64,000 nucleotides of DNA, from contig OZ024742.1 of NCBI GenBank assembly GCA_964016885.1, forward strand, positions 205,964,001-206,028,000, written 5' to 3'. The notes beneath the pieces were generated by a model. That model was not told where the DNA came from. It did no database searches and saw only the letters and a program-made list of their open reading frames with translations. This document shows positions 3,200 to 57,932 of the stretch, piece by piece (position 1 is the first letter of the stretch; each line of letters starts with the position of its first letter). This DNA comes from Eledone cirrhosa (Eukaryota). The position numbers and the translations under genes are program-made.

Positions 3200-4030
3200 T
3201 TCAGAAAGATATATTCCTTTAATGTTACAATATTAAAGAAAATGTAAAGGAAGGGGTGAACAACGGAGCCAACACCAGAACAAAAGACAGCAACGTTGCG
3301 AGTACTGGGTACCCTCTCTAATGAATTTTGAGGCAAGCCAGCACACTTGCAGCGTTGCCTTGGGTGAAACAGCCAAGCACCCTCGCGAGATTCGCCAGTC
3401 ACCTCTATAAGGCGAGTCGCCAGTGAAGAGAGGAACTTCACAGTCAGTGGCCTGATCCCCCAAACGTCTCGAAAGCCACAGGCTGAAAAATGTAGTTGGC
3501 CGACAGATCAGATTATTTGAGGGTCTTACTCTGTTCAGCTGCAGAAGCTGTGGCTCTCATCCTAACCGCAGCATCCAGGATGTGGGAAAGAGCAAAAGAG
3601 TCACTAACACTGACGTCCCAGACAAGGCACCTGCCTCTCGACCAGGGGTACAAGATAAGACCATCAGGTCTTTTGCCATCACTTCTGGACCACCCAGATG
3701 GTTCCAAGACTGAGGGGATATTCGCCTGGGCCAAAGCTCTCTTCAGAATGAGGTTTAGCCCCGTGTGATGCTCGAAGCGGCCGGCATTCAGGCGGCAAGA
3801 AAGACCGTGGAGGCCTGTGGAGTCAAGGAGTTTGCCACATCGGCACCTCAAACCCATGCAGGCTTCAGCTCCCACTCTGAGGGCGATGGAGACACAAAGT
3901 TTGTCCAGGCTGAGTAGGCCACCAACGTTGGCCACGGGTAGGGCATCGACTCAGTTGCCTGAGTATTTGGCGGTGGCAGATAGTAAGTGGCACCTTGAAA
4001 ACTGATCTGACTGATTTTTTAGACTGGCAG
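3200..4030 (-). mobile_element. CRE-clade non-LTR retrotransposon 3' fragment (zinc knuckle plus restriction-like endonuclease), degenerate
   Basis: ORF 3513..3935 has CRCG...HGLSC...H and LEPSGWSRSDGKRPDG...WDVSVSD; continues after a stop with YIFQPVAFETFG. Boundaries approximate. Confidence 0.8.
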
Positions 4031-4639
4031 AAACATAAACTTGGACACAGTCAAACATATATTTATATGTGATGGGCTTTCACAGGCTCTCTGCCTGCCA
4101 AATTCCACTCACAGAGTATTGGTAAACCTAACTTTATAGTACAAGACATTTGCCCAAGGTGCTATGCAGTGGGATTGATCTTGAAATCAAGTGGGTGTGA
4201 AGTGATTCTCTTAAACACACAACCATACTTGCATATTTCAAATGCATATTTAGATTGTGTAATATTCTTGGTTTTCTGATATATAAGAGTAATGTTGTTG
4301 TTTAATTCCAGGTCAGCTCTGATTGAGCAGTCCTATGGTTAGGAGTGTTCCAGCTGCGACAATCTCATATTTCTATGAGTATCAAAGATTACATTTAATG
4401 AGTCTATGAGTATCAAATAGTATGCTATCTAATGTATCCTTCCTTTTGCTATTTAGTGATACAATGATTTGAGTGAGGTTTGGTTGCAGGTTGCGTAGCC
4501 ATATAGAGGTTCACACATTGGTGATGTATATATTAGATGGCTACAAACGGAAATCAAACTAGAGAGTGCTGGCACAATTGTGTGGTTAAGAAGTTCACTT
4601 TGCAATTATATAGTTTAAGGCACTGCACCTTCTACCATA

Positions 4640-4885
4640 GACCTAAGTTGACCAAAGTCTTCTCTTCTTCTTTGTCCAATTATTTCTATGGAGGCCTGTG
4701 GGGCAAAGTCCTCCAACGGGTCCTGTCAGAAACAACCATCTCCAACTGATCTGGCTGAATCCCCAAGTGTGACCGACCAAGCTCATGGATATTATCCAAT
4801 CATTTGCTTGAGGTCTACCCCTGGGTCTCCTACCAGTTGATTTTGCCTGTAAAATCTGCCCAGCGATTCTTTCCTGAGACATTCT
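4640..4885 (-). mobile_element. RTE-clade LINE 3' fragment
   Basis: MSQERIAGQILQAKSTGRRPRGRP motif; similar to the copy at 23930-24220. Confidence 0.75.
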
Positions 4886-6769
4886 AACTCAAAGTCTTCA
4901 GTGTGATATTTAGGAGGTGGAAACTGTTCTTGGATAGTATACTTAATCTGTCACTACTATCTGTTGCAAACATTCACATCAGGTTTCCAGGTATAGGACA
5001 ATGTCTTTCCACTTGTCTTGGAAACTATTGATAAGTCATCCTCTTCTGACTAAACTGTTAAAATGAATAAATATGTGTTGCAGACTGAGTATGACAAGAG
5101 CCTAACTTAATTCTATAAAGTAAATATTAATAGCAGGCACTGAGAGAGGGATCTGTCAGTTAAACCAGTCACAGTACTTAAGAGGTACTTAGGTTATTGA
5201 TCCCAGAAGGTGAAGAGATGAAACTAAATAGTGAAAGGTTCTACTGATTCTCCTATCTTTCACCTTCAGTGAATATTAATAATATCATCCCATTGAATAA
5301 TATAAAGTTTTGACTGTTGACAGCGAATGACTTAAGATATATTTTTGAATAATCGAATGCAATCAAATAAGAATTTTGAAAATTAACATATGTATCTTTG
5401 CATTTTTAATTCTCCCTCTCTCTCTCTCTCCCTGGTTTTATTGATTCCAGCCATGATGGATCATCACCATTAGAATAATAATTCATATATCAGTTCCATA
5501 TATGCTGACCTGATTTCTCACTAAGGGACTGCCCATCTTACCTATGCTAGTGTGGAAAATGGACATTAAACGATGATGATAATGATATATATATTTTCCA
5601 TGTATTAACACGTGTCACTTTAAGTAACCAATATATCAGACTCAGTAATATTACCAAAAACTCTACACAGCTAATATATTTGTGTATAATTGAAACACTT
5701 TCCTTCGTAGACTCATGGCCTCCAAAGAAACCAACATTGATGTTAATCATACCTCATCATTAGCAGATAATGTTTATGGAAGTTTCTTATCTGGATTTTT
5801 TGTTTATTTTTGTATTTTTGTTTTAGTGATTTCTATTAATTTTATAACAGTAGTTATGGTCATGATATTGATCCTGGTTAGTTATTTTTGTTATAATCAT
5901 CTGCAAGAAATTGGACAATTTTAATAATTGGGGTGATTTTGGTGAATAGCAACTGTTGTAACAAGTCCAGATGTTAATTCATATGCAAATGAGCTAATTG
6001 GCATATATTAGTTTAATTTTAACTGGTTCTGCAATGTGTTGCTCCTTGCAAGTTTTTACAAAACTCTATGGCTTATAGCACCTCTGAGTGGTAGCTAGTT
6101 ATTTAATGTTATTTGAATATTTCTATTGTTTTTGACAATTACTCTGTAGCACACTTTATTATAGGTGTTAGAACCTCCGATAGAATGTTTTGCTCTCTAA
6201 GTTCAAATCTAACCAGGATCAACTTTGCCTTTCATCCATTTGAGGTCAACAAAAAAGTACCAATCAACCTCTGAAAGAAATCTTCTATATTCAAACTTCC
6301 TGGAGAGGATTGGTTTCCACCAGGTTTAAAAAATGATCTAGAAATACTCTATGTCAATATGGCACCCATATGACTCCCTCAGAAGTTATGGGGCCATGCA
6401 TACACTCTTTACTATCTAGTCAAAAAGGCCACAGTACTCAAAGAGTTAATAGTGATACACAAACATATAAGATTTCCATGATAACATATGAGAGTTGTTG
6501 ACATATAAACAAGCTGTGTTAACAAGATTTTATAAGTTGAAAGGTTCATAGGAAAAAATGTATAAATGCCAAAACTTATATACACACAATGCCAAAACAT
6601 ATATACGCACAAAGTTTACATGTTTTAAATTTTTGGCATCAATTGCAAATTTGTGTTTAATGATATCTTATTTCGATGCCTTCAAGGCCTATTTTTCAAA
6701 TATTAATCTACCTAATTCATCTCTGGCCAAATGAAGCCTTTGCTATCATTCTTTACTAACATGTTTTAA

Positions 6770-7106
6770 CCCTTTCATGACCATATTCCTAATGAAACAA
6801 ACTATATTTCAATCCATTAATGATGAATTTGAGGGATGGTGTTTTGTTTACTCTTTCTTTATCATATTTCAAATTAAAGTCAATGTCTATGATTTTAAAA
6901 TAATTAAAAAAATAATCAAGAATTTGGAAGGATTTAGTAATATAACTAACTTTCTCATTATTGAACTGGTGCTTGGAACATAATATGATAAAGGTTCTTA
7001 CATTAAATTATGATGGAAGGTTTTTAAATAAGTATAAACACTTTAAAATAAACAGCTTAGTATTGTAGAACCAGGGCAAGTTTTAAGTGATTTGGTATCA
7101 AAGGTG
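6770..7106. mobile_element. piggyBac-type MITE, degenerate
   Basis: TTAA-CCCTTTCATGACCA at the left and TGGTATCAAAGGTG-TTAA at the right; related ends near 8845-8865 and 49015-49250. Confidence 0.55.
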
Positions 7107-9439
7107 TTAAATTTGGCTGGCTTTCTGCTTATTTCACTTAATCTGATTTTCATCGACTTTTAGACAAACATGGTTTTCAGTATTCTCTTTAATATGCATT
7201 TTTATTTTGCAGATACTTTTGAGTGGAACTCTAATATCTATTTCAACTCAACTGCTACGCTCACCAAACTAATAAAGGATTCTATATATAAAAATGTTGT
7301 CAGGATTTTATATATATTTCATTTCATATACATCACACTGGTGGTGTGGTTTTGTTGGCAATAATCAGTTCCATCAAATTTAGATGGATAAAGTTAGTGT
7401 GTTGTGAGGAGAAGAGAATGTTAATTTTTCCAGAATGGCTTTTGCTTGGAGAACGTAATATGTTCAATGGCTGTTCTTGAAAACAAATAATGTGACCACA
7501 TTTATCCTCTAAAGTGTATGGATATACCTTGTAATAACATAAGAAAAGTTAGCCTAGTGTAGCCCACCTTTCTTTAGGCTATTGGTTACAGGGGGATACA
7601 TTTAAATGAAATGGTTCAACAAAACTGAACTTATACTAAAGACTCACTTGACAGGTTACTTATACCACCATCATATACTTATACATATACCATCATAAAC
7701 ACCATGTGTTTATGACACTCACCCACTCCACACAGTAATGCTTCTGAAAATAGTGTTGATAAATTCAGGTAGTTTTCATTTAAATAAGTATTTTTATAAG
7801 TAGATAGAAGTAGATAGGTATTTTTGAGCTAACAGTTATCATAATTAAGAAGATTGAAACATGTTTTGTGAGCGAAGGGAAAATTTTCAATTATAGTCTT
7901 TCAAATTGGAAATTATAGCTTTAATGTGTAAAGGAGAAGAAAGGAATTTTTAAATAAACGACCATTACAATTTCAACAGTGTAGTCTTAATAGGTTGACA
8001 ATATCAATAAATTTCAGATTATACTATAGAATCAATAATCAGGAAAAAATTTACAAAATAACAGTAAATGATAAATAGATTGAAAAAAAAAAGGGAATTG
8101 TATGAAATGACCAAGTAAACAATCTTTAAGTTCAATAAACTGATGTAATTAGAACAAATATCAAATATTCAAGTTTCCTTTCAAGACTATTTACTATCTC
8201 TCTAAGTTGACAAAATCTGAAATAACTAGAGTGCAATATGATATCTTGAGTATAATTATATTTAAAGAGGTATATTATGCTTTTATTTACTAAAAAAAAA
8301 AAAAAAGAATCAAAAACAGAAATATCTCTGAATCTGAAATTTCTTTCTTATTTTTCATTGAAAAATTATGTAACTGAAAATAAATCAAGCTAAACAGAAT
8401 ACATTAAAATAATGTTAGTGCCAAGTTGTGTAATGTAAATACTTGAGATACAAGATATGTTTTTATTTCACAATTACATAGATGTGTAGGCGTGGCTGAG
8501 TAGTTAAGAAGTTCTCTTCACAACTATATGGCTTTGGGTTTAATCCTACTGCATTCAATTTTGAGCATATGGCTTTTAAGATGAGCTTAGAACTCAAGAC
8601 AATTTTAATTATGTTTTATAATATTGATATTAATCTGCCATCATTGTAACTATTTTATGACTGTATTTCAATTAATTAAGAATTCAGAGTGATTTATTAA
8701 AATTATTAACTGTTCTGTTATTAAGATGGTATTTTTAACATACCACATAGTTCTTATATAAAATCATGCCGGAAGATTTTAATTTAAATGTGAACACTTT
8801 TAAATGAGTAGTTTGGTTTAATAGAACCAAAGTGGTTTGGGGAAGGTTGGTATCAAAATGGTTAAATGCTAACATCTCTTTGATATATACATTTATGAGA
8901 GATCCATGAAATGGATATAAACTATGGTTTCCTTGACAAGTCAATATGAAGTGCTTTGAACTACTCTTCATCTGTGGTTCAAGTGCCATATCCATATTCA
9001 CAATTGAATCTCTTCAAAGTTCTGGCACCTCACAAACCAAATACATAATACTTACAGAACCTTGTCTTTCTCTACATTTCACTTCCAATAAGAAATTATG
9101 TGAAAAAATTTTCTACATTCTTATTTTTTTTTAGCTATGACTACTTTCATGACAGTATGATTTAATCTAAACATTAGTAAGTAAATTCAGAGTTCTTGAT
9201 CAGGTAAGCATATATATATATTACATATGATACCAAAATAGAAGAAAGAATGAACAACATATATAACAAAAATGCCCAGTCTTCTCAGTTGTTATGTGCA
9301 CCAAGATGCTGAGAGACATGTCCACTTCATGCCAGCAAGGAAAAATGGATTCAAAATGATGTTGATGATGATGATAACATATTTTATATATATATATATA
9401 TATAATGTATGTTATCATCATCATATATATATATATGTG

Positions 9440-34632: not shown

Positions 34633-37600
34633 TCACTCTCTGCTCAGACTGGAAAGCAGTCGATAAAAATGAGGAGAAAATATCTGCAAGCAAAGCAAAT
34701 ACAAAAATGAAGAAAAAGAGAAAAAACGAATAGTTCATATGTAAATTGATTTACAAAGTTTCTTGAGCCAATGAACATGGCGACCACTACGAGTTGTCGT
34801 GACGTATGTTGAAGGTAAAGGAGTGTGTGCATGAAATTGTGGTGCTTGCGGTGGTGTTTGTATTGACACATTGTAGGAGGGGTAGTATGAGCTCTGGTGT
34901 GAGAGCATCTGTGTAAGCCCGCTTTAGTCTCTCAATAGAGACTGTCTCTATGTCTATTAAAGTCAATTGTGAAATACTTGTTTGTACATGCTAGTACGCA
35001 ATAGGGTTCAGAATAAGATGGAGTGAGAGGACTTCTCACTGCATCATTTCTGACAAAAACACGGGTCCACGAGGCAATGTCCCTCGGAACTAAATATTTG
35101 ATGGCTTGGTGCCTAGTGTTCATAGGAGGCAGGACTTGAAAATATGAACGCAAACGGTTCACATAGAGTGTAGGGTCCTGAGTAGAAAGATCGAGTGGGG
35201 AAAGCATCTGCCCTGGCAAATATAAAGTAGTGCCGTACAAAAGCTAGGCTGGAGAGAATCCAAGGTCCTCCTTAACTGAAGTGCGGATACCGAGTAGAAC
35301 TATGGGGAGGTAGTCGCTCCAATGTAGAGTATCCGGATAGGCACGCAATGCGGTCTTTAATTGGCGATGAAAATGCTCTACCGTTCCATTAGATGCAGGA
35401 TGGTAACTGGTAGTCCTGATGCGTTGAGCACCCATGATATTTGATAGATCCGTGAAAAGTTGAGATTCGAACTGCCTACCACGGTCTGTAGTAATCGTGG
35501 TAGGAACTCCGTAGCGCGATATCCATCCTGAAACTAGGGCTTGTGCTACTGATTCAGCAGTTATGTCACTAAGAGGGATGGCTTCAGGCCATCGGATGAA
35601 ACGATCAATGCAGGTCAGGATGTATGAATATCCACGACTGACAGGCCAAGGTCCCACGATATCGATATGTATGTGGCAAAAACGTGCGTCAGGAGTGCTA
35701 AATGTGCCGAGAGGTGCGCGAATATGTTTACGCACCTTCGACCTCTGACAAGCCAAACAGGAACGTGACCAAGCAGTAATATCACGTCTCATATTCGGCC
35801 AGAAGAATCTAGCTGAAATGAGTTTCACTGTGGTGGAAATTCCGGGGTGTGCCAGACTGTGTAGAGAATCGAAAACTATTCGACGATATGTCTCTGGGAC
35901 CAGAGGGCGAGGTGAATCTGTTGCAGTATCACAGAGAATCTGAGAGTCCTAAGTGAGTACAGGCAGGTATTTGAATTTGCAGCCTGCTAATTCAAGTGAA
36001 GAGAGATCCAACGACTCTAGGGTAGGCTGTTCTTCAGCCATAAGATGCAAGTCAATATTCGTCAGGTGCTGACAAGGAATTGATGGGTAGGCGAGATAAG
36101 GCGCATCCGCCGCTGTATTATGTTCACCAGAGATACGACGAATGTCATTCGTAAACTGGGATATGAAGTCCAAATGACGAGTTTCTCGAGTTGAGTATTT
36201 GTCCGGATTGGAACCAAGTGCGAACGTAATCGGACGATAGTCAGTAAAGATCGTAAATTGTCGGCCTTCCAGTGAATGCTGAAAGTGTTTGACAGACAGG
36301 AAAATGGCTAACAGTTCGCGACCGAAGGTGCTATAGCGGGATTCGGCGGGCTTTAGCTGCTTTTAAAAGAAAGCAAGAGGTTGAAGCTGTTGTTGGTGAT
36401 GTTGTTGCAATACTGCACCTACCGCTGTGCTTGATGCATCTACAACCAGTGAAAACTGGGCACCAGACACAGGGTGTGCAAGCAGAAATGTGTTTGCTAA
36501 ATTATGTTTAGCTTTGGAGAATGCTTCGAGTTGCATAGGTCCCAAAGCGATTGGTTCGTTCTTCTTCTTTCTGTTACGCAGGAGATCAGATAGTGGAGCT
36601 AAGAGTTCTGCGCAATGCGGGATAAACTGACGATAATAATTTAGAAGACCCAGGAACTGCCGCAGCTGTCGCAAGGAAGCAGGCGGAGGGAGTTGCTGAA
36701 GAGCCTTCACTTTCTCAGGAAGTGGGAATATTCCTTCAGAGTTAATCACGTGGCCCAAAAAGACGAGTGAAGCAGCGCCGAAAATACACTTCGCAGGGTT
36801 AATACGAACTTGGTACTGCCTAAATTGTTCAAACAGTTGGCGGAGATGCGAGATATGATCCTCCGGTGAAGCACTCGCGATGAGAATATCGTCGATTGAC
36901 AATATGAAAAATCGTGCCTTCGTCCATAAATCGCTGGAAGGTACTAGCAGCATTGCGTAATCCAAAAGGCATTGTTAAAAACTCGAATGCACCAACAGCA
37001 GTTTTAGGAATGTCCGCAGGATTCACAGGGTTTTGATGATAGGCTCTGATCAAGTCCAATTTAGGAAAAATAGTACATCCATGAAGCGAAGAAGCGAAAT
37101 CCTGGATATGAGGAATCGGGTAACGGTCAGGCAAAGTGATCGAATTTAATCTCAGAAAATCTGCAGTGGGACGCCAGTCTCCCGAACGTTTCGGAACCAT
37201 ATGCAAAGGCGTGGCCCACGGACTGGAAGAAGGGCGAACGATACCCAACTGCAGCATATGATTAAACTCTGCCTTAGCCGCTTTCACTTTTTCCGGAGAA
37301 AGGTGACGCGGGCATGATAAAACTGGAGCACCTTTAGTCTCAATAAAATACTTGGTAGAGTGAGTAGGGGTATCTACCGCAAAGTTCAGATTAGTTAATT
37401 CTGGAAAGGAATGTAAAAGCGCATGATACGGGTCATCCGAAGCAGCAATGAAGAAGACTGGAGTGGTGGACTGGATTACTGAAGTACGTCCAGGCGCAGA
37501 AATATTCGTAGTTGCGTCTAATAAACGACGTGTCCGCATATCAACCATTAGATTATAATGATGCAAAAAATCAGTATCCAGTATAGGATATGGCAAATCC

Positions 37601-38700
37601 GCTATGGTGAAAATCTATGAGAAATCTCTACGTAAATCCAGGTCCAAAGAGCGAGAGATTTGTCCATACTTAGGGATAGCAGAATGGTTGATAGCTTGTA
37701 GTGATATCTGTGAGAGAAGAGGTTTCTCTTTTAAAAGCTTCAAGGCCAAATGCTGCACGACGCACCGGTGTCAATGAGACAGCGTACGTGCGAGAAGGAA
37801 TCCGTGATAAAAAATGCACGACTGTCAGTACAAGATTGTGGAGAAGACTTCGTGCTTAATTCTCCGGTGATCCGTTTCCCTGGTTTGGAAAAGAACAATG
37901 CTGGATACATTTATGAGCCGAGGCTCTGAAACGCCTACGGTACCAGCACGATCGCAATGTTGAAGGCTGGAAACGACGATGTGAAGATTGCGAGCGATTT
38001 CGCAACCGTTGTTGGGGAGATTGTGATCTGGAGAATCGAAGTTGTTCCTCTTTTGTTAGGTCACGGATGGCCTTGAGCGTTGCCTCAGTGGGCGAAGTGG
38101 CGCTAGCAGAAACCGATGCGACAGGCGAAGATGAAGAAGAATTTGCTGCAAGTCGCGTCGGGGTAGAAGTGGTAGAGTTGTCGGTGTAGTCAACGATCTT
38201 ATCGGCGGACGAAGCCAACTGATCCGCCGAACTGGTTTCCGTCTTGGTGCCAAAATGGCTTGCATATTAGGAGGCAGCCTTGAGAAAAATAGCTGTTTAA
38301 TCATGACACTGTCGGCTGGTGAGTCTTCCGTGGGCTCTCTCATCCTACGTAAGAGCTGAGTAGGCCTACAATCGCCGAGATATTCGTCGTTCACCAAAGT
38401 ACGGAACTTCTCAGCAGAGACAGAAGTATGTTGGCGAATTTCCTTTTTGACGCTGTTATAAGTAGCTTCAGGAGACGGGTTAGTAATTAAGTCTTTAACC
38501 GTTGACGTTAAAGAAGCAGAAATGGACCTGAGCAAAAGATGGAGTTGTCTAGAATCTGAAGATATATTATTTGCTAGGAAATACGATTCCATCTGTGCGA
38601 GCCAGATCCGCACATCACCGATATACACTGGTAGTGAATTACTTGCCATTGCTAATGGTAATATAAGGACTGCTTCCCTCGACCGAAAGAAAAAGAAGAC
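34391..38700 (-). mobile_element. Ty3/gypsy LTR retrotransposon, degenerate (gag-PR-RT-RH-IN)
   Basis: gag (38056..38649, 37856..38218); protease LIDTGA near 37770-37790; [47 protein letters not shown]; RNase H VDASSTAVGAVLQQ; integrase [22 protein letters not shown]; C-terminal TRSGRHV near 34790. Confidence 0.92.
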
Positions 38701-38984
38701 AGACGTTCGTTAATTTCGGCTCAAAACAATAACTGGATTATTCCTCGTGTATAGAAAATAACACACATTTATTTATATTTTTATCAACGTGGCCTGTCGG
38801 ATTCCTTAGACCTGGCACAACGCCACATTCACTTCTTAACTCTTAATTTGTTTGTTCCTTAGTTTGACATGTCAACTCAACCCAATTAGTTGTGAACAAA
38901 ACATGCAAAAAGGTTTTAAAGACCTGTAGTGCCATTACCACAATAGAGAGTGCGCATGTTCAGGCCAAAATGAAAGCGATGGTA

Positions 38985-41835
38985 ACCCAACCTCCGAGTA
39001 ACCCAACATTGCTACCCTTCAAAACGATGTTTTGGAACTCATACGGAGTATCAGATTTCGGAATAGGAGCAATTCCCTCCACAGGACCTGAAGAATAGAA
39101 TTTGTTCTATTAAGGATTCTGATGCTGTGCACGTCCATTCCGACAAAACTGGCAATCTATATCAAGTGGAGCGCAGTACTTACCATCTACTGCTACATAA
39201 TGCTGTAACTGAGGATTACCGGAAAACTAATCGGAGTGTCATTAATGACATCAACGATGCATGCCGTATTTAAAATCACCTCTGAACTCAACATCCCAGA
39301 CCGGACTGAACCTCTGGACCCTATTTCTCCCCCTTTACCCTGAAGGATCAGAAACCCAACAACCCCTCTCTTCGGTTTATTAACCCTACGAAATCCGATT
39401 TCGGTAGTCTTAGTAAAAGGATTTTAGATAGAATTATACCTGAAATTAGAAGCTTGGCCCCTCTTGCACTGTGGAACAATTCTTTCGCGGTGATTGATTG
39501 GTTCAATGGCATATGCAACAAGGAACATTGCCATTTTATCCAATTCGACATCAATAACTACTACTCCTCTATCACTTTACCACTTCTTCTTAGAGCTATC
39601 AATTTCGCTAAAACGCTCACAGTGGTTAAGGGTTCCGAAGTTGATGTCATCCTCAATGCCCGTAAGTCGGTGATTAATTTCGACGACTCTATTTGGATTA
39701 AAAAACCTAATAGTACCCCATTCGACGTGAGTATGGGCGCCAGCTATTGAGCCGAGGTTGCTGATGTTATCGGCATTTTCCTTCTTTTCTCTATCAAGGA
39801 AGAATTCCCCAATGTGGGCGGTGGTTTGTACCGTGATGACGGTCTTTTTGCCATGACAAAGTGTGGTCCACGCGCTTGCGACAGATTCAGAAAAGAACTC
39901 ACAGCCTTCTTTAAAGGCTTCAACCTATACAGGTTGAGGCCAACCTCTCGGTCGTTAATTACCTCGACGTTACCCTCAATTTGTCGAATGGCTTGCACTA
40001 CCCGTAGAGAAAGCCGAATGATACGCTTAATTACATAAGTAAGCATTCTAACCATCCTGCCAGCATAAGCAAGAACCTGGTAAGAAAGGTTTCTTTGAGG
40101 CTTTCCCGTCTATCTACAAACAAGCATATTTTCACCGACCATTCCACATATTACAATAAAGCTCTTGCTCGGAGTGGATTTGTCGATAAGGTAGCATATA
40201 CTAAGTATGAGCATAGACCAAGGAAAAATAGATCCTGACGCATTATATGTTGTAACAGACCATATAATATGGAGGTGGCCACACAATTAGCTAAGATCTT
40301 TCTCTCCCTTATTAAGAAGTATTTCCCCCAGCACATAAATATAATAACATTTTTAATAGAAATACCATTAAAATATCTTACTCTACGGCTCCTAACCTTG
40401 CATATAACATCACTGCTTCAATTACCTAGCCGTAGGAACATGTGCAACCCTGTAGCTAGTACTAACTGTAATTGTAAGAATCGGGTTGACTGCCCTCTAT
40501 CCGGGAAATGCCTCTCTAGTAACATTGTCTACAAATGTAAGATCGAAACACCCACGTCCCGTAGGGCCTACATAGGGTTAACCGCAAATATATTCAAGTA
40601 GCATCTTTACATGCACACCCATTCTTTTCTTAACCCTTTAAGAAGGAATATGACGTCACTTTCAGCTTACATCTGGAGTCTAAAAGACAACCACACCCAA
40701 TATAGGTTACACTGGGAGATCCTAGCTAAATTTAGATCGTATAACGGAAATAAAAGACCATGCGATCTTTGCGCCGCTGAAGCCCTGACCACACCTTAAA
40801 CAAAATATCTGAGGCAATTTCGGCTTGTAAACATAAATTGCATAAAACTTTCCTGTATTACAGCCCCACATTATACCCTAACGGACAGTCCAAATAATAC
40901 GCGGATAATTTACGTCTTGATGCGGTAGCTAAGTATATTTTATGTTTATACCATTACTTATTTGTATACCTTACCCGTATGTTTTGTGAAGGTACGTATA
41001 CTTTCTCGTACGTATATTTGCTTGTATTTGTTATAGGTGTATATATTATATTATATATACTGGTACATGTGTATATGGTTATGTGTATATGTGTATTTTG
41101 TGTTTGTGTGTGTATGCCTGTTTGCACGTATGTAAGGTGTGTATATGTGTACTTGTGATTAGGTTGACGTACGTTTAGTGAACATTTGTGTATTTACCTG
41201 TAGGTATGTGAGTGCGTGCGTTAGATACGTATTTATGTGTGTATATTTATATACGTTTATATAATTATATGTATACACACACACATATATATTTTTAATG
41301 TGTATTTGGTGTATAGGTTCGTATGTGTGCAGGTAGATATGTCGCGTGGGCTTATGTATGTGTGCGCGTGTTTATGTGTACGTGCTTATATACGCATGCT
41401 TGGCGAGTGTTTTCGCGTATGCTTGTGTATGTACGTATATGGATGCGTGTATGTATATATTTAATTATTGTCTATAACCTCTGTCATTTTCGTTCTACTA
41501 ATTTATTTACATTATTCCTAACTCTGAAGCCAAGAATCATTCAGTTTCCTAAAAAAGAAAATTAGTCTACGACTTCATTTATACCATAAACGTGGGTTTG
41601 TCTTTGCGTGTAATTGTTCTCATCGATCCACATAATGACATATCATCTTCGCTTTTTTCCGTTCATTGCCAGGGAACGTCTTCACGAACCAAAGTATCGT
41701 CTTCCTGTTTTCCTTCGGTTGCAACGATTTTCGACATATTTACTTCTGCGTTCACAGATTGATTTTTTTAGTTTCAGAAGATCCCGTTAAGGGTGAAAGC
41801 AGCGATTTTTTGCTTAAACTTTAATCTGTTATTTT
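38985..41835 (+). mobile_element. Penelope-like element (RT plus C-terminal GIY-YIG), frameshifted, with long 3' UTR
   Basis: FIQFDINNYYSSI, FDVSMGASY*AEV, GGLYRDDGL, CNCKNRVDCPLSGKC, IVYKC...AYIGLT, CDLC; ends in an HHR motif and (TA)n. Confidence 0.9.
41755..41828 (+). ncRNA. Type I hammerhead motif in PLE 3' end (core U4A substitution)
   Basis: GTTT-CAGAAGA-T-CCC GTTAA GGG-T-GAAA-GCA...TGC-TT-AAAC, with a distal stem I helix CAGATTGA/TTAATCTG. Confidence 0.75.
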
Positions 41836-41836
41836 A

Positions 41837-41867
<31 letters not shown>

Positions 41868-42100
41868 GTAATATATATATATATATATATATAATATATA
41901 TAAAATATATATATATATATAAAATATATATATATATATATAAAATATATATATATATATAAAATATATATATATATATATAAAATATATATATATATAA
42001 AATATATATATATATAAAATATATATATATATATAAAATATAATATATATAAAATATATATATATATAAAATATATATATATATATAAAATATATATATA
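41836..42100. repeat. (TA)n-derived microsatellite
   Basis: Direct observation. Confidence 0.97.
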
Positions 42101-42226
42101 TGAAGAGAAACATAGAATATTCGAAAATATTCTGTATGTTTATAATAAACATTTTGAAGACCCAATCGCTATAGAATAGAATACGTCACGTATTACAATT
42201 TGAGATTCTCGATAAAAGCAAGGGAA

Positions 42227-42269
42227 GTAACCTACGCGTTTCATTCTTATTAGAAATCATCAGGATTAC
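42227..42269 (-). ncRNA. Type I hammerhead ribozyme
   Basis: Reverse complement of 42768-42810. Confidence 0.88.
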
Positions 42270-42538
42270 ATATCCAATGCTTTTATCGAGAACGACACAG
42301 CTAGAGACTTATAGAATACTTAGCTGTGTACAGGAACTGGTTTGAAAGAGCGGTAGCCGGTCCGGCAGAAATTAGAATTTGGATATAATGCTCTGAAATA
42401 GCGATATATATGTGAAGAGAAACATAGAATATTCGAAAATATTCTGTATGTTTATAATAAACATTTTGAAGACCCAATCGCTATAGAATAGAATACGTCA
42501 CGTATTACAATTTGAGATTCTCGATAAAAGCAAGGGAA

Positions 42539-42581
42539 GTAACCTACGCGTTTCATTCTTATTAGAAATCATCAGGATTAC
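42539..42581 (-). ncRNA. Type I hammerhead ribozyme
   Basis: Same motif, 312 nt from the previous copy. Confidence 0.88.
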
Positions 42582-42767
42582 ATATCCAATGCTTTTATCG
42601 AGAACGACACAGCTAGAGACTTATAGAATACTTAGCTGTGTACAGGAACTGGTTTGAAATTCTAATTTCTGCCGGACCGGCTACCGCTCTTTCAAACCAG
42701 TTCCTGTACACAGCTAAGTATTCTATAAGTCTCTAGCTGTGTCGTTCTCGATAAAAGCATTGGATAT

Positions 42768-42810
42768 GTAATCCTGATGATTTCTAATAAGAATGAAACG
42801 CGTAGGTTAC
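42768..42810 (+). ncRNA. Type I hammerhead ribozyme, minimal, palindromic stem III
   Basis: GTAATC-CTGATGA-T-TTCT AATA AGAA-T-GAAA-CGCG-TA-GGTTAC, enclosed by a 15-bp helix TTCTCGATAAAAGCA (42745-42759) / TGCTTTTATCGAGAA (42817-42831). Confidence 0.88.
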
Positions 42811-42970
42811 TTCCCTTGCTTTTATCGAGAATCTCAAATTGTAATACGTGACGTATTCTATTCTATAGCGATTGGGTCTTCAAAATGTTTATTATAAACA
42901 TACAGAATATTTTCGAATATTCTATGTTTCTCTTCACATATATATCGCTATTTCAGAGCATTATATCCAA

Positions 42971-42987
42971 ATATATATATATATAAA

Positions 42988-43019
<32 letters not shown>

Positions 43020-43354
43020 TATATAATATATATATAATATATATATATAAAATATATATATATATAATATATATATATAATATATATATATATATAATAT
43101 ATATATATGATATATATATATATATAATATATATATATAATATATATATATATATAATATATATATATGATATATATATATATATAATATATATATATAA
43201 TATATATATATATATATAATATATATATAATATATATATAATATATATATATAATATATATATATATATATAATATATATATAATATATATATAATATAT
43301 ATATATATAACATATATATAATATATATATATAATATAAATATAATATATATAT

Positions 43355-43397
<43 letters not shown>

Positions 43398-43468
43398 TAT
43401 ATATATAATATATATATATATATATAATATATATATATATATATAATATATATATATATATATAATAT

Positions 43469-43531
<63 letters not shown>

Positions 43532-43573
43532 ATATATATATATATAATATATATATATATATATAATATATAT

Positions 43574-43622
<49 letters not shown>

Positions 43623-43745
43623 TATATATAGTATATAATATATATATATAATATATATATATAATATATATATATAATATATATATATAATATATATATA
43701 TATATATAATATATATATATAATATATATATATATAATATATAAT

Positions 43746-43813
<68 letters not shown>

Positions 43814-43830
43814 AAATATATATATATATA
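42971..43830. repeat. Long (TA)n/(TATAA)n microsatellite, about 860 bp
   Basis: Direct observation. Confidence 0.98.
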
Positions 43831-44381
43831 TGTATGAATATATGTATTGTATATTTACCAATATACCATATTTTTAATTAAAAACATTTTGAAGATCATA
43901 CGCTCTCAGTTTTAAAGTAGTGACTATGTCACTTGCTTCTTTTCGGCAAAGGAAGGGAGAGAAGCTGAGAGTCTGTTTCAGACTGTTTGGCGATCATCAG
44001 AGCCACGCACTCCCTGTTTCCGCCAAAAATTATAGAAGCTGGATTCTTATAGAATTCCAGTAATAATCAGGAGCTGAATATACAGACCGATTGCCGGTCC
44101 AGCAAAAATTAGGTATTGCTGGAATTCTATAAGAATCCAGCTTCTAGAATTTTCGGCGGATGCAGGGAGTGCGTCTCTCTGATGATCTCCAAACAGCATG
44201 AAACAGACTGTTAGCTTCTCTCCCTTCTTTTGCTAAAAAGAAGTAAGTGACATAGTCACTACTTTAAAACCAATAGCGTATGGTCTTCAAAATGTTTTTA
44301 TTAAACATACGGTATATTGCCAAACATACTATACATACATTCATGTATACATCGCTATTTCAGAACACCAATCCTAATACC
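43830..44381. mobile_element. Older fold-back element related to the 312-nt family, one HHR motif per arm
   Basis: About 43830-44063 is an imperfect reverse complement of about 44115-44347; shares AAACATTTTGAAGA, GCCGGTCC(A/G)GCA(A/G)AAATTAG and CGCTATTTCAGA with the 312-nt unit; HHR cores at 43964-44003 (-) and 44176-44215 (+). Confidence 0.8.
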
Positions 44382-44414
44382 ATATATATATATATATATA
44401 TATATATAAAGCAT

Positions 44415-45085
44415 AAACGAACTAAGGAAAAAATTAGAAATAAGAGGGATCAGATGTTGTTTACTAGAGAGAAGGCTACGTTGGTATGGTCACGTGATGC
44501 GCATGAAGGACGATAGCTGTATAACAAAGTGCAGGGCAATAAAGATAGACGGTAGCCACGGAATAGGCAGACCCAGAAAAACCTGGGACGAGCTGATAAA
44601 CTCCGACCTCACACAGTTACACCTCACCAAGACAATGTCACTGGACCGAGACCTTTGGCGGTACTCAGTAATAGAGAAGACCCGCCTTACCTAAATACAA
44701 AGTAAAACCTACTACAGTCAGTAGGCATCTCTAACAAAATACACCCCCGTCCCACCACCCCCACCCCATCCACACCGCCCCCTCTATGTAAAGTTATGTT
44801 GGTGCCACACCATCCAGGCCGAAACAAATGAGATCGTGTAGGTGTCACGACAAAAAAACACACAGTCCACGCTGTAATGTGGCCGTGTAGGCAACACGGT
44901 AAAAACCTCCCAGACCCACACTGTAAATGTGGTTGGTGTTAGGAAGGGCATCCAACTGTAGAAAACCTGCCAGACAGTCCTATGCGAGCAAGACAATCAC
45001 TCTTGCCTCAAGTGGGAAAACCCCCGTCCAAACCCATGCAAGCGTGGAACACGGACGTTAAACGATGATGATGATGATGATGATA
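44415..45085 (+). mobile_element. RTE-clade LINE, 5'-truncated
   Basis: MMRMKDDSCITKCRAIKIDGSHGIGRPRKTW plus 3' tail and (GAT)n; close copy of 46390-47050 and, inverted, of 63617-64000. Confidence 0.88.
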
Positions 45086-45248
45086 TAATATATATAATAT
45101 ATATATCGGCTACACGCACACACATATATATCCTAAAACACGGTTCCTCTATGAGCAGGGTATGGTATGGCCAACGCCACACCATATATATATAAAGAAT
45201 TTCGTTTTTAAAATATAAAAACTGGAAAGAAGTAGGTGGAGAAGTTAA

Positions 45249-45452
45249 AACAGCTCAAAATACGTACTTGATACTGCTCTCGTTAAAGAAAATAATATGC
45301 TGAGAGAACTAAAGCTTTGTAAAATCTGTTTCGATGAAGAATTGAGTGTGGTGTTTTTACCATGTGGCCATTTGATCACATGTGCGTCTGCTCTCAAAAA
45401 CTGTCCTTTGAGTAAAAAAAAAATTCAAGGACTGGTTAAGGTGTATTTCTGA
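45249..45452 (+). pseudogene. IAP-type C-terminal RING finger fragment
   Basis: Manual translation: LVKENNMLRELKLCKICFDEELSVVFLPCGHLITCASALKNCPLSKKKIQGLVKVYF*; two zinc ligands missing. Confidence 0.75.
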
Positions 45453-45544
45453 GGAAATGAATTTTTGTAACCTCTGACACAGAAATAACAGTTATCTTGT
45501 AGTTGAAAAAATAATTGAATAATTTAAAATTTAATTAATAATAG

Positions 45545-45925
45545 CTCACACACGACCGCGACCTCTTGCGTCATACAGCAATACAGAAGACCCGACTTCC
45601 CACGGGTACAATCTGAAGCTGAAACATATAGACAATATGTCCCCCACCCCCCACTGCAAAGTGGTCGTGGAGGTGCCATGGCAAAAAAGCACCCAGCCCA
45701 CACTGTAAAGTGGATGTGTAGGCGCCATGGGAAAAAGCACCCACCACTCACTCTAAATGAGGTTGGTGTTAGGAAGTGCATCCAGCTGTAGAAATCTAGC
45801 CAGAATCAGTTCCCGTATGAGCAAGGCAAGGTCAGCCAACCGGACACTGCCCACAACAGGACAACCCGTCTAATCGATGCTAGCCTGGAAGAACGGATGT
45901 AAAAACGGTGATGATGATGATGATA
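45545..45925 (+). mobile_element. RTE 3'-tail repeat
   Basis: Reverse complement of the 20180-20560 family; ends in (GAT)n. Confidence 0.75.
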
Positions 45926-45929
45926 TATA

Positions 45930-47050
45930 TATGTCCCAAATGCAAAGTATGGGTACATAAAAGATGTAGTGGGATCACAGGTAAGCTAACTAAGAATATA
46001 GATTTTATATGTGGCCGGTGCTCTGGTGCAATAAGTAGCAGCAAGAGCCCACAGAATACTAACTCATTCCATTGCACAGATGGTTCTATAGAAATAGTGG
46101 ACAGCTTCCGTTACCTGGGTGATAAAATCAGCAGTGGGGGAGGGTGCTCTGAAAGTACAGTAGCTAGAGTCAGAATGGGAGGGAAAAAGTTCAGAGAGCT
46201 TATACCACTATTGGCCGCTAAAGGGTTCTCTCTAAAAAGGAAAGGCAGGCTGTATGATGCCTGCATACGAACAGCAATGTTACATGGCAGTGAGACCTGG
46301 GCATTGTGTGCAGAGGATATACGCAGACTGGAGAGAAACGAAGCTTGCATGCTCCGCTGGATGTGTAATAGTAATATACATGAACGGCAAAGCATAAACG
46401 AACTAACGGAGAAATTAGAAATAAGAGGGATCAGATGTTGTTTACTCGAGAAGACTACGTTGGTATGGTCACGTGATGCGCATGAAAGACGACAACTGTA
46501 TAAAAAAGTGCAGGGCAATAAAAATAGACGGTAGTCACGGAGTAGGCAGACCCAGAAAAACCTGGGATGACTTGATAAATTCCGACCTCACACACTTACA
46601 CCTCTCCAAGACAATGTCACTGGACCGAGAGCTTTGGCGCTACACAGTAATAGAGAAGACCCGCCTTACCTAAGTACAAAGTGAAACCTACTACAGCCAG
46701 TAGACACCTCTAACAAAATACACCCCCGTCCCACTACCCACACCACCCCTTTCAATGTAAAGTTATGTTGGTGTCACAACATCCAGCCCGAAACAAATGA
46801 GGTCGTGTAGGTGTCACGACAAAAAAACACACAGTCTATGCTGTAATGTGGCCGTGTAGGTAACACGGTAAAAACCTCCCAGTTCCACACTGTAAATGTG
46901 GTTGGTGTTAGGAAGGGCATCCAGCCGTAGAAAACCAGCCAGACAGTCCTATGCAAGCAAGACAACCACTCTTGCCTCAAGTGGGAAAACTCCCATCCAA
47001 ACCCATGCAAGCGTGGAATATGGACGTTAAACGATGATGATCATGATGAT
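45930..47050 (+). mobile_element. RTE-clade LINE, 5'-truncated
   Basis: ORF 45908..46534: CPKCKVWVHKRCSG...CGRC, VDSFRYLG, MLHGSETW; frameshift into 46473..46673; 3' tail and (GAT)n. Confidence 0.9.
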
Positions 47051-53018: not shown

Positions 53019-53064
<46 letters not shown>

Positions 53065-53251
53065 GGTTATGCACGAGTGCATTAAGGTTTTCCAGGACAC
53101 AGTGTTATGTACAGTGTAGGAGAAGGTCAGCTTACAACAGAGTGGTGCTCAACGAAATGCAGAAAATAGGTGTATATTCCAGTTTAGCTATACTCCGGGG
53201 CGTGTATAAAGAATCAAAAAGAACAGAAAGATGCAGTAAAAGAGATTTATT

Positions 53252-53382
53252 CGGTTCTAACGGGCGTTTCAATAGACATCAATTTGCCTAGATCTCGCTG
53301 CATCTATAATATTATATAGTTAGTAGAGCATTCGACATCCAATGCACAATCGATTCCATATCATCAGAGATTATGTTTACCG
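53252..53382 (-). ncRNA. Type I hammerhead motif with long stem II (PLE pseudo-LTR)
   Basis: Reverse complement of 57701-57831; stem III reads ACGCCCGT here. Confidence 0.72.
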
Positions 53383-53753
53383 TACCAGAATGTTCAGGTT
53401 TTTATAGGAATTCATGTGAAGTTGAAGTAGAGAAGAAGGAGGATGTGACAAAGACGAGAGAGATAGGGGGGTTTTTCATGGTTGTTGAGGTAAAACAGAG
53501 GGGAGGATAAAATACGATAATGAAGTCTAGATATGGACTAGTCCAACTGTGTGTGTGCTAGGGAGATGGTAGACGTTGATAGGTTTATGATCTATGATAG
53601 ATGGAGGCAGGGGAGATTAGGCCGGGTGACTTGTAAAGTATGTAGGAGGAGATGTTGAATAGGGGAGATGTGGTCAATAGAAGGCATAGCAATAATCCAT
53701 GGGGACAGATAGAGGAGGTAGAAGGAAGATAGAGAAAAGCAGAAGTCGCAGGA

Positions 53754-55969
53754 TCAAATCAAGCCAGGTTTGTATTTCGAGAACGTAGCCTTGAGTCTGT
53801 GATTGCAATATAGAGTCCTTTCCGTTCTGTTGTTGAGAAGAGTATAATTCGATTTTAGTATGTAAAATAGCTCCATATTGCATAATCGGCAGTAAGGCTG
53901 GCCTGCACGATATGCGGAAGCACTAGAGAGTTTTGTCCATTTCAAAGTGTATTGCAGGTTACTTTCGCGCAACTGCCAAATTGTATTGGCTAAGGTAGTT
54001 ACGGAATGGTATTTGATGTTCTTCATCGAACTACGGTGTTGGTACCAACGAGATTTAAAAGTGGTAGAGGTACAGCCGATATAGTGCCATCTGCGGTTAT
54101 CCGATTTAACGGTGCATTGATCCACCATATTGGATTCCATGCATTTGTTATTCAGAGGGCAACGATCAGGTAGGTTGCAGTTGCACTTATCAGCTCTTGT
54201 AGTATTATTATCTTGTACAGGTTGCGTTAGGTTTATATGTGTGTCTGCTGCAGGAGGGTTTACATTCAGTGGTTGAGAGTTTGAGGAAGTGTTAATGTAA
54301 TTTGAGGTGCTTCGTGTGGATGTGCTGACTAATCGTTTGGAGTTAAGTTTTTTAATAATTAGATCGAGATTGGGTGCTGTAGAATATGAAAGCTTAATGG
54401 ACCTTAGATTTAGTATTTTAGCGTATCGATGTGCAGGAGGAAAATGTGTTTTGATTAAATTGAAGAAAAGTGAAGAAATTTTAGGAGATGTTGAGGCATT
54501 GTATATTGGGTTGTACCAAAGGTAGCTACGATTCCGCTTTCTAGCTAGGTTGGGTTGTGTGCTTCTATTTCGACTATGCCTGTGCGGAAAGTGTATGTTG
54601 TGTATCGTACCTATATTATTGTTTATGCTAGTGCGTTGTGAGCCCTTATTTCTATATTGGTGTGCTGGATCTATGTACTCTATTTTGTCTTGGTATCCAG
54701 CCGCCTTAAGCGCGTTGTTATAGTAGTAAGCGTGCTCACTAAAGACCTGGGGGGTAGATGACAGGCGTGATATTCTAAGGGAGATGGCCCGAGGGATAGA
54801 CCGTATAACCGAGGGTGGATGATTAGATTTATGGTCAACATACATAATATTTTCATTAGATTTATGGAATGGGCGGATTTCCCCCGTCTCTAGATTAAAT
54901 GTTACATCCAAGAAATTTGTTTCAGTCAGGTTGTACTCAAAAGTAATGCTAAAACCAAGACTGTTTAAAAATTCGCTAACTTGCTTACGTAATCTTTCTA
55001 TTTTCTGGTTGTTTAGGTGTTTAGCTAAAAGGAGCGCATCGTCGCGGTAGATTCCCCCTTGTAGATTGCGGAATATTTTCTCTAGTGCTTGAGCGATGAA
55101 GATGCCCACTACGTCTGTAACTTCGGCCCATCGTGATATCAAAGAAAGATGGTCGATCTTTGCGCACCCAGTAGCTATCATCGAACTTAATTATGGTTTT
55201 TCTGGCCTCAAGGATGATGCCTATTTCCGCGTCGGTTAGGTCAGAATTCTCTCCGGCAAACATTAGGGTCTTATGCAGGGTATCGGGTGATATGGAAGAG
55301 TAGTAGTCGTTTATGTCGAATTGGATCAATTTTGATTCATCCCTATCCTTGATATTACTAAACCAACATACCGCCTCCTCAGTATTTGCCCAGAGTTTTA
55401 TGCCAGTTATCCGTTTTAACTGGGGGATTACTCTATCTAATATATATTTACTTACTCTACCTATATCCGATTTCGATGGGCATATTAGTCTAATCTGGGG
55501 GTTTGCATGGAAATTGACTTTGTGGTCCTTTAAATTAAAGGACGGGGTCGCTGGAATTATTGGTTCTGTCCTGTCATCTATACCCAGGTTCTTAACTATT
55601 TTGTGTGCCTCATTGTTAATATGTATAAGAGTAGATTTACCTGTTTTTTTGTACTTCTTGTGTAGTTCAGTACGGATGAAGTTATTATAGGTGTTTACAT
55701 CTAGGGTGTACGCGTTGGATGTTTTATCGGCCTTAATGATAATCCCACTGGTATTATTAAGTTTGTGGACCAGAGCTTTGATGTTCTTTTGTAGTGTATT
55801 TTCCTTTCGGCGGTAAAATTTAACTCTCGTAATAGTGTTTAGAAGGTCTTGTTCAAAGGCGTCAAGAAGAGGGTTAGACGGAGGGTTTTTGCAGGATCTA
55901 AATCCATAAGATTGCGTATCTGAGTTGGACTTTTGGTTATTACGGCCCATGTCGAAATGAAAAGCACAG
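53754..55969 (-). pseudogene. PLE reverse transcriptase plus GIY-YIG endonuclease ORF, one frameshift, 5'-truncated
   Basis: IIKADKTSN, LKDHK, RLICP, QFDINDYYSSI, DITMG|AEV (frameshift near 55127), GIYRDDAL, NFLDV, WYNP, CNCNLPDRCPLNNKC, HYIGCT, CRLCNME, CNH. Confidence 0.93.
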
Positions 55970-57700
55970 AAGTCCAACTCAGATAAGCAATATTATGGAT
56001 TTAGATCCTGCAAAACCCTCCGTCAAACCTTCTTCTTGACGCCTTTGAAGACCTTCTAAACACTATTACGAGAGTTAAATTTTACCGCCGAAAGGAAAAT
56101 ACACTACAAAAGAACATCAAAGCTCTGGTCCACAAACTTAATAATACCAGTGGGATTATCATTAAGGCCGATAAAACATCCAACGCGTACACCCTGGGTG
56201 CGCAAAGATCGACCATCTTTCTTTGATATCACGATGGGCCAAAGTTACAGACGTAGTGGGCATCTTCATCGCTCAAGCACTAGAGAAAATATTCCGCAAT
56301 CTACAAGAAGGGGGAATCTACCGCGACGATGCGCTCCTTTTAGCTAAACACCTAAACAACCAGAAAATAGAAAGATTACGTAAGAAAGTTAGCGAATTTT
56401 TAAACAGTCTTGGTTTTAGCATTACTTTTGAGTACAACCTGACTGAAACAAATTTCTTGGATGTAACATTTAATCTAGAGACGGGGGAAATCCGCCCATT
56501 CCGTAAATCTAATGAAAATATTATGTATGTTGACCATAAATCTAATCATCCACCCTAGGTTATACGGTCTATCCCTCGGGCCATCTCCCTTAGAATATCA
56601 CGCCCGTCATCTACCCCCCAGGTCTTTAGTGAGCACGCTTACTACTATAACAACGCGCTTAAGGCGGCTGGATACCAAGACAAAATAGAGTACATAGATC
56701 CAGCACACCAATATAGAAATAAGGGCTCACAACGCACTAGCATAAACAATAATATAGGTACGATACACAACATACACTTTCCGCACAGGCATAGTCGAAA
56801 TAGAAGCACACAACTCAACCTAGCTAGAAAGCGGAATCGTAGCTACCTTTGGTACAACCCAATATACAATGCCTCAACATCTCCTAAAATTTCTTCACTT
56901 TTCTTCAATTTAATCAAAACACATTTTCCTCCTGCACATCGATACGCTAAAATACTAAATCTAAGGTCCATTAAGCTTTCATATTCTACAGCACCCAATC
57001 TCGATCTAATTATTAAAAAACTTAACTCCAAACGATTAGTCAGCACATCCACACGAAGCACCCCAAATTACATTAATACTTCCTCAAACTCTCAACCACT
57101 GAATGTAAACCCTCCTGCAGCAGACACACATATAAACCTAACGCAACCTGTACAAGATAATAATACTACAAGAGCTGATAAGTGCAACTGCAACCTACCT
57201 GATCGTTGCCCTCTGAATAACAAATGCATGGAATCCAATATGGTGTATCAATGCACCGTTGAATCGGATAACCGCAGATGGCACTATATCGGCTGTACCT
57301 CTACCACTTTTAAATCTCGTTGGTACCAACACCGTAGTTCGATGAAGAACATCAAATACCGTTCGTAACTACCTTAGCCAATGCAATTTGGCAGTTGCGC
57401 GAAAGTAACCTGCAATACACTTTGAAATGGACAAAACTCTCTAGTGCTTCCGCATATCGTGCAGGCCAGCCTTACTGCCGATTATGCAATATGGAGCTAT
57501 TTTACATACTAAAATCGAATTATACTCTTCTCAACAACAGAACGGAAAGGACTCTATATTGCAATCACAGACTCAAGGCTACGTTCTCGAAATACAAACC
57601 TGGCTTGATTTGATCCTGATCTCTCTCGTCTTTGTCACATCCTCCTTCTTCTCTACTTCAACTTCACATGAATTCCTATAAAAACCTGAACATTCTGGTA

Positions 57701-57831
57701 CGGTAAACATAATCTCTGATGATATGGAATCGATTGTGCATTGGATGTCGAATGCTCTACTAACTATATAATATTATAGATGCAGCGAGATCTAGGCAAA
57801 TTGATGTCTATTGAAACGTACGTTAGAACCG
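57701..57831 (+). ncRNA. Type I hammerhead motif with long stem II (PLE pseudo-LTR)
   Basis: CGGT...TCT-CTGATGA(57716-57722)-T-ATGGAATCGATT...AATTGATGTCTAT-T-GAAA(57813-57816)-CGTACG-TT-AGA-ACCG, then AATAAA. Confidence 0.75.
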
Positions 57832-57871
57832 AATAAATCTCTTTTACTGCATCTTTCTGTTCTTTTTGATT

Positions 57872-57932
<61 letters not shown>

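Follow-up and report, generated by a model that had tools for sequence, protein, structure and literature searches.

Divergent two-armed insertions of a 312-nt hammerhead repeat in Eledone cirrhosa: a probable retrozyme family with a Penelope-type insertion footprint

How does a non-coding unit of 312 nt that carries its own ribozyme motif come to lie in genomic DNA in copies that point away from each other into a simple repeat? This question is raised by a locus in a 64,000-nt stretch of the Eledone cirrhosa assembly (GCA_964016885.1, contig OZ024742.1, positions 205,964,001 to 206,028,000 of the forward strand), which as a whole is called the window below. A preliminary description made from the letters of this DNA had placed a young, retrozyme-like repeat with three intact hammerheads at 42101..42970 and predicted that it releases a 312-nt RNA.

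The core CTGATGA...GAAACGCGTA is present three times in the window, at 42233-42263 and 42545-42575 on the minus strand and at 42774-42804 on the plus strand, against 0 matches to this 31-nt pattern in 100 shuffles of the window. The three type I hammerheads to which these cores belong (42227..42269 and 42539..42581, minus; 42768..42810, plus) are identical to one another and were called from the core pattern together with a below-threshold Rfam match. Cleavage is predicted after GUA, at 42233|42232 and 42545|42544 on the minus strand and at 42804|42805 on the plus strand. The minus-strand copies are spaced exactly 312 nt apart, and folding gives a predicted monomer from cut to cut at 42233..42544 (minus). 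Spacing, cuts and monomer were thereby recovered at the coordinates first given for them, and the third hammerhead on the plus strand was confirmed with its core at 42774-42804. The claim that the copies are identical also holds, with 0 mismatches over 246 compared positions between the tandem minus copies and 100% complementarity between the inverted arms.

The unit has a G+C content of 35% (108/312) and contains no ORF, the longest stop-free stretch round the circle being 59 codons, in line with the earlier statement that no credible ORF exists; an ORF with reverse transcriptase and GIY-YIG endonuclease, the feature of autonomous Penelope-type elements (PLEs), is absent from it. Simple patterns for the Pol III A and B boxes matched neither strand. 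The monomer folds better than shuffled sequences in linear mode (z = -4.08), and circular-mode folding, which had been suggested as a check, gave z = -4.7 against 60 shuffles. Matches of the repeat to miRNAs were rejected, as they reflect the palindrome only.

In each hammerhead, stem I has 6 bp, two of them G.U, stem II has 4 bp on top of a U.U mismatch, and stem III is the palindrome ACGCGU. All conserved core positions (C3-A9, G12-A14, A15.1-U16.1 and H17) carry the required letters, stem I contains an internal loop, and loop 2 has 4 nt. The perfect 15-bp helix reported around the hammerhead was found again (42745..42831, plus; 42745-42759 with 42817-42831) and has compensatory changes in a 315-nt relative; the extra hairpins are likewise present in the sequence, although the second had been quoted from the strand opposite to the ribozyme. 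The architecture is shared with dimer-dependent type I hammerheads, in which helix I has 6 bp and helix II 4 bp, while helix III is 1-2 bp long and carries a palindromic loop; a double hammerhead is expected from them (PMC4209133). The reading of ACGCGU as a dimer-type stem III is therefore supported, by pattern and by these publications (PMC7229834, PMC4209133). Unlike those hammerheads, the unit has U.U in place of the usual G-C at 10.1-11.1 and stays below the Rfam gathering scores: no model reached its gathering score in the window, and Hammerhead_HH9 matched all three copies at 20.6 bits against a gathering score of 52 (E 0.081).

The word “intact” applies to the core letters, while activity stays a prediction. 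The predicted ensemble gives stem II and the inner pairs of stem I a probability of 0.07-0.09, and a forced double hammerhead lies 9.9 kcal/mol above the lowest fold of the model; the active hammerhead fold is not the predicted lowest-energy fold. The U.U at the base of stem II is common to this unit and the axolotl HHR_Amex2, for which 22% cleavage as a monomer and much better cleavage as a dimer are given (PMC7229834). For Xenopus retrozymes, the main text of a preprint reports 8/9 dimers without in vitro cleavage (10.64898/2026.07.22.740005). A modelled transcript through both arms of the window locus forms one long duplex that abolishes the hammerhead fold at 42233, so the predicted release of the monomer would need transcription that starts at or inside the minus arm.

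Both the core pattern and the family features support the initial view of a retrozyme-like repeat with a type I hammerhead, and the repeat almost certainly represents a non-LTR retrozyme family, a kind of element that is already known. According to PMC7229834, metazoan non-LTR retrozymes likewise have one type I hammerhead per non-coding tandem unit of 150-450 nt, a GC content below 50%, a self-paired fold and a dispersed distribution from monomers to multimers. PLE mobilisation with rolling reverse transcription has been proposed for them, as it is here (PMC7229834, PMC7761336, 10.64898/2026.07.22.740005). Two differences stand out against the published retrozymes as those texts portray them: they are head-to-tail tandems, whereas the insertions described here mostly consist of two divergent arms with fixed ends in (TA)n, and their cleavage and circles have been shown, whereas both are predictions for the 312-nt family.

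The window element is not a simple tandem. Between a left (TA)n tract at 41837..42100 and a right one at 42973..43834, two arms are joined at their 5' ends and both point outwards into the TA repeats. With unit positions numbered from the first base past the predicted cut, arm alignment gives a minus arm of 1.8 units at 42101..42659 (unit positions 198 to 132), the outer end of which, at unit 132, is called site A (42101), and a plus arm of 1.0 unit at 42657..42972 (unit positions 165 to 168), the outer end of which, at unit 167, is called site B (42971). The 5' ends of the arms overlap by 3 nt (AAA, 42657..42659), and a spacer of 30 nt (42660-42689) separates the halves of the palindrome. Comparison of the ends shows a 35-nt tail between sites A and B at the outer end of the plus arm only (42937..42971). 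As each arm holds sequence that is absent from the other, neither is a fold-back copy of its partner. The original span of 42101..42970 is accordingly corrected to two arms, a layout with one end at A and one at B that had been missed.

In the 3.0-Gb genome the 31-nt core has 612 exact copies, which supplies the genome-wide copy count proposed at the outset, and the reversed control has 0; a similarity search returned 479 family candidates, of which 39 were scored. The sample analysed comprises 64 loci including the window locus: 37 come from 150 listed of 211 matches and are biased toward copies most like that of the window, and 27 come from the first 100 listed exact-core matches on contig C1 only. 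Divergent two-arm insertions make up 53 of the 64 loci and single arms the other 11, with arm lengths from 0.1 to 22 units; an LTR-internal-LTR layout was found at none of the 64. When outer ends at unit 125-141 are classed as A and those at 159-174 as B (at L047 a 1-nt indel made it necessary to assign one end to A manually), the 53 two-arm loci divide into 47 with A+B, 0 with A+A, 0 with B+B and 6 with one other end. If ends were independent at 50:50, the 47:0:0 split would have a chance of about 7e-15. Site A is carried by either arm (26 versus 21 loci), the distance from A to B is 35 nt, and TA-rich DNA lies beyond 103/112 A or B ends of the sample. A target-site duplication is unreadable because the flanks are TA repeats. 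The inner junctions vary from locus to locus: among 52 (L038, which has an N gap, is omitted), an overlap of 1-4 nt is seen in 24 and a longer one in 5, while 8 are blunt and 15 contain 1-32 inserted letters. As the layout recurs with different junctions at 53/64 loci, it is in all likelihood no assembly artefact, a concern raised in the preliminary description.

This pattern is familiar from PLEs. Their insertions often comprise an inverted 5'-truncated copy with a 30-40-nt tail at one end only and are biased toward microsatellites (PMC8557442), and a purified PLE protein cuts and extends both DNA strands, with two internal RNA start sites bounding the tail (PMC11167929). The 312-nt family shares with PLEs the inverted 5'-truncated copy, the one-end tail, the microsatellite target and a hammerhead upstream of two internal start sites. 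Unlike PLEs it has no ORF, and the whole element is the 312-nt unit repeated up to 22 times. A further difference is the strict use of one site of each kind, as the PLE protein in vitro did not differ between the strands in its choice of start site and also accepted uncut RNA (PMC11167929); the same text models this protein as a dimer. Mobilisation by a PLE is inferred from the footprint, and it is very probable that the retrozyme was written into DNA by Penelope-type insertion from both ends of a break.

If both break ends were extended, did they copy the same RNA? Locus markers present in most copies of one arm were found in the other in 104/108 checks, compared with a permutation mean of 0.16 and a maximum of 0.42 (n=1000), the checks not being independent in that markers were counted from both arms. 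The same sharing is also expected with two RNAs of one source locus. As regards the state of the RNA, 105/117 arms cross the predicted cut site, with 260 gap-free crossings in which no letters are added or lost, and 0/12 internal breaks are located there. Inner arm ends lie near the cut in 10/104 cases versus 7.3 expected and are spread roughly evenly round the unit. Templates that end at the ribozyme cut were rejected for want of an excess of inner ends at this position; together, the gap-free crossings and the missing pile-up argue that cut linear monomers were not the template. On balance, the two arms were probably copied from one RNA, with a probably circular template. As a separate observation, 9/104 inner ends fall at unit 119-127, just upstream of site A, against 3.0 expected, in a range picked after looking.

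The lengths of the arms can be followed in two sister families with units of 310 and 311 nt, which are about 95% identical to the 312-nt family. Their arms reach 9.9 units, and the nine longest of 15 loci, with about 89 units between them, contain 2 private changes; at each locus the two arms share one haplotype. Since such long arrays are nearly invariant, it is at insertion that long arms are formed. With 162 singletons in 72,633 scored bases, the 312-nt family is older than these sisters. This also qualifies the recent insertion proposed for the window copy, which is only loosely supported: its 0 differences in 708 scored bases are compatible with a mean of 0.22% for the family, and homogeneity is about 20-30 times higher in the 310/311-nt sisters.

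In older arrays, later events may have added to the pattern. At 1615-8577 of locus L039, a mosaic arm of 22 units contains variants that recur, are partly linked and are in part multi-allelic, and the short arm is without its T190C marker; part of this array may therefore be growth after insertion. The idea that one RNA with a damaged base was read many times with errors came from 7 within-locus multi-allelic sites versus 1.8-3.1 expected. It was rejected because young sister arrays are nearly invariant and because the linked variants of L039 recur together, which would fit later mutation and conversion. An RNA-editing scar was rejected as well, the singletons having no strand bias (A>G 15, T>C 18); among private fixed changes 4/12 are A>G, too few to read. 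Selection on the core was considered from 0/21 locus-fixed changes in 12 core positions and set aside, since only about 0.8 changes are expected and the count is uninformative.

A more distant family with a 315-nt hammerhead unit (2,928 candidates, about 91% identity among copies) has the same A and B ends and a homologous module, and its sequence is about 65% identical to a 310-nt copy. One decayed two-arm insertion of this older relative adjoins the window element at 43835..44382, with a minus arm that runs to site A and a plus arm (44114-44382) that runs to site B. Against the 315-nt relative, 13/78 predicted pairs are kept by double changes, compared with 1-6 in slid controls, where a single 315-nt sequence supplies all the double changes and the same four-row alignment served to derive the structure. 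Of these 13 pairs, 6 belong to the helix that closes off the hammerhead and 2 to stem II. Two helices are invariant, one of them enclosing site A and the other spanning site B; immediately past site B lies a 20-nt motif with 17,542 occurrences in the genome. By inspection, the locus-fixed stem I changes G2A, A279G and U280C all preserve pairing in the hammerhead register, and the 10.1-11.1 pair, U.U in the 312-nt unit, is A-U in the 311-nt sister. Among the sequencing runs listed as containing the repeat, none is of RNA. In DNA sequencing runs examined over 42095-42975, no listed piece spans the stretch, and the runs contain the family or its sisters. The majority letters at the window repeat in the runs of organism A match the 310/311-nt sisters and are for this reason no cross-species covariation. 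A related family that has variants of its own is present in run X4 of organism B, where its summed depth is very high.

Taken as a whole, the best explanation is a hammerhead retrozyme whose single, probably circular RNA is copied into (TA)n by a Penelope-type protein, an account that is favoured with some reserve. Acting as double hammerheads, multimeric transcripts would cleave themselves after GUA, and closure of the 312-nt monomer into a circle would fall to a host ligase, on the analogy of axolotl Rtz353. Next, a protein of the Penelope type, which is likely to be a dimer, would cut both strands of (TA)n, and one break end would prime at site A and the other at site B. Each enzyme would run a variable number of turns round the template before short microhomology or small insertions connect the two cDNAs head to head. 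A more specific version can be put forward tentatively, in which a single 312-nt circle is gripped by a PLE dimer whose subunits prime 35 nt apart at one (TA)n break, each of them rolling, while the helper reads the shape of the RNA and not its sequence; the 1,239-aa element found at locus L096 would be the first candidate for this helper.

The template of an insertion from both ends could instead be linear, if an existing array were transcribed into a long multimer that stays uncut, with a hammerhead that rarely cuts and circles that are not an intermediate. This would agree with the insertion of uncut RNA by the PLE protein in vitro without hammerhead cleavage (PMC11167929), with the disfavoured active fold of the model and with locus L105, where 5/6 copies, found in both arms, have a G at the cut-site base and are predicted to be non-cleavable. 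Homogeneous young source arrays exist, so that identical units do not require a circle. Against a linear template, 0/74 unit-specific variants are common to both arms in register, and inner ends form no cluster at either the cut or a start site. It can also be argued that repeated 5' truncation would shorten the arrays, yet arms of 6-10 units exist in several young haplotypes. A linear template is considered unlikely. The hybrid locus L096, in which the A arm of a retrozyme is joined to a PLE arm at the far site of that element, and the 4/108 discordant marker checks could mean that each break end uses an RNA molecule of its own, either a circle or a monomer with template jumping, drawn from one dominant source, with A and B set by the protein subunits. 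This hybrid is the only one in 64 loci and is also explicable by a deletion between neighbours in one TA tract, the arms almost always match despite at least a dozen haplotypes, and the 260 crossings of the cut site neither add nor lose letters, all of which makes two RNAs rather improbable.

The fixed A+B ends at 47 loci with differing inner junctions speak against a satellite origin, in which unequal crossing-over would have expanded decayed PLE ends into arrays, and either a fold-back of the DNA or the assembler would have produced the inversion. Exchange at the DNA level is indeed visible in the mosaic variants of older arrays, a route of satellite birth is discussed in the main text of the preprint 10.64898/2026.07.22.740005, and no independent record spans the junction in the window. 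Against this, each window arm holds sequence that the other lacks, and the long arms of the young sisters are near-invariant, so that a satellite origin is very improbable.

Which protein could act on the single RNA favoured here? A review of animal retrozymes states that they show no conserved motif that points to a helper (PMC7761336). Six PLE families of the genome, sampled by protein searches with the best 150 of 12,000-61,000 candidates scored in each, gave no alignment to the retrozyme module above shuffles. The similarity of the repeat to the pseudo-LTRs of these six families stayed within the shuffle range, which counts against a non-autonomous derivative of any of the six. A 35-nt tail was found in none of the families in which it could be measured (about 145 nt in two Hydra-type families and about 60 nt in the 1,239-aa family). 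Pfam gave no family for the two intact PLE ORFs, and the clade names used here rest on motifs described in PMC8557442.

The 1,239-aa family is nevertheless weakly indicated as helper by the hybrid locus. At 1391-2698 of L096 (contig C1 near 188.84 Mb), a retrozyme arm with an A end lies head to head with a 5'-truncated arm of this PLE, which ends at its own far site, and the junction has a short templated insertion. Such a hybrid would need two different RNAs in one event, unless a later deletion between neighbours intervened, which would give the same structure. The family is young, with intact frames of 1,226-1,240 codons (2015-5731 of L238, minus; L231, L232 and L240), and 28/29 of its ends among the matches listed, with one place counted twice, fall at one of two sites about 60 nt apart. 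These sites overlap the start of the ORF. It has a type I hammerhead and carries a C-x4-C-x2-C linker as described for Neptune and Nematis, a likeness at the level of the motif. One-of-each ends like those of the retrozyme thus recur in coding PLEs of this genome: at each of three two-arm loci of a 784-aa Hydra-type family, too, a short end is paired with a long one, the two lying about 145 nt apart. Many near-identical intact copies of a very young 784-aa Hydra-type PLE with one-of-each arm ends are seen at L185-L192.

Retrozymes, their circles and a proposed PLE helper are already known, and the window copy adds a subfamily and extra tests, not a new system. In the retrozyme literature examined, mobilisation by PLEs and rolling reverse transcription on a circular template have the standing of proposals and are not shown. 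No published description of two-arm retrozyme insertions with a one-of-each tail rule was found in main texts, to which supplements may add, and in the main texts of PMC7229834, PMC7761336 and the preprint the terms “inverted”, “tail” and “orientation” are not applied to the elements. The 312-nt family itself bears the insertion footprint of PLEs; its two start sites are surrounded by a structured module that is conserved, and its ends strictly follow the one-of-each pattern. A non-coding RNA of 312 nt whose start sites are mapped, in a genome that also contains intact ORFs of candidate helpers, is a small and ready substrate for the existing in vitro PLE assay. If true, the reading of a single circle held by a dimer would give both a mechanism for the spread of animal retrozymes and an origin for the one-sided tail of PLEs.

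Other elements surround the locus in the window. A decayed PLE of another Hydra-like family at 39310-41836 ends at the left edge of the TA tract, and broken gag-pol fragments at 35244-38709 (minus), with frames that we take to be reverse transcriptase, RNase H and integrase, are presumably of the Ty3/Gypsy kind. At 53062-57874 lies a two-arm Hydra-type PLE in TA with a DKT motif, a C-terminal GIY-YIG and arm ends about 145 nt apart, the pseudo-LTR of which contains, by eye, a motif that resembles a hammerhead and has a very long stem II. At 44400-47000, pieces of a LINE-like element recur, and a short frame at about 45300-45450 presumably resembles the end of an IAP-type RING finger.
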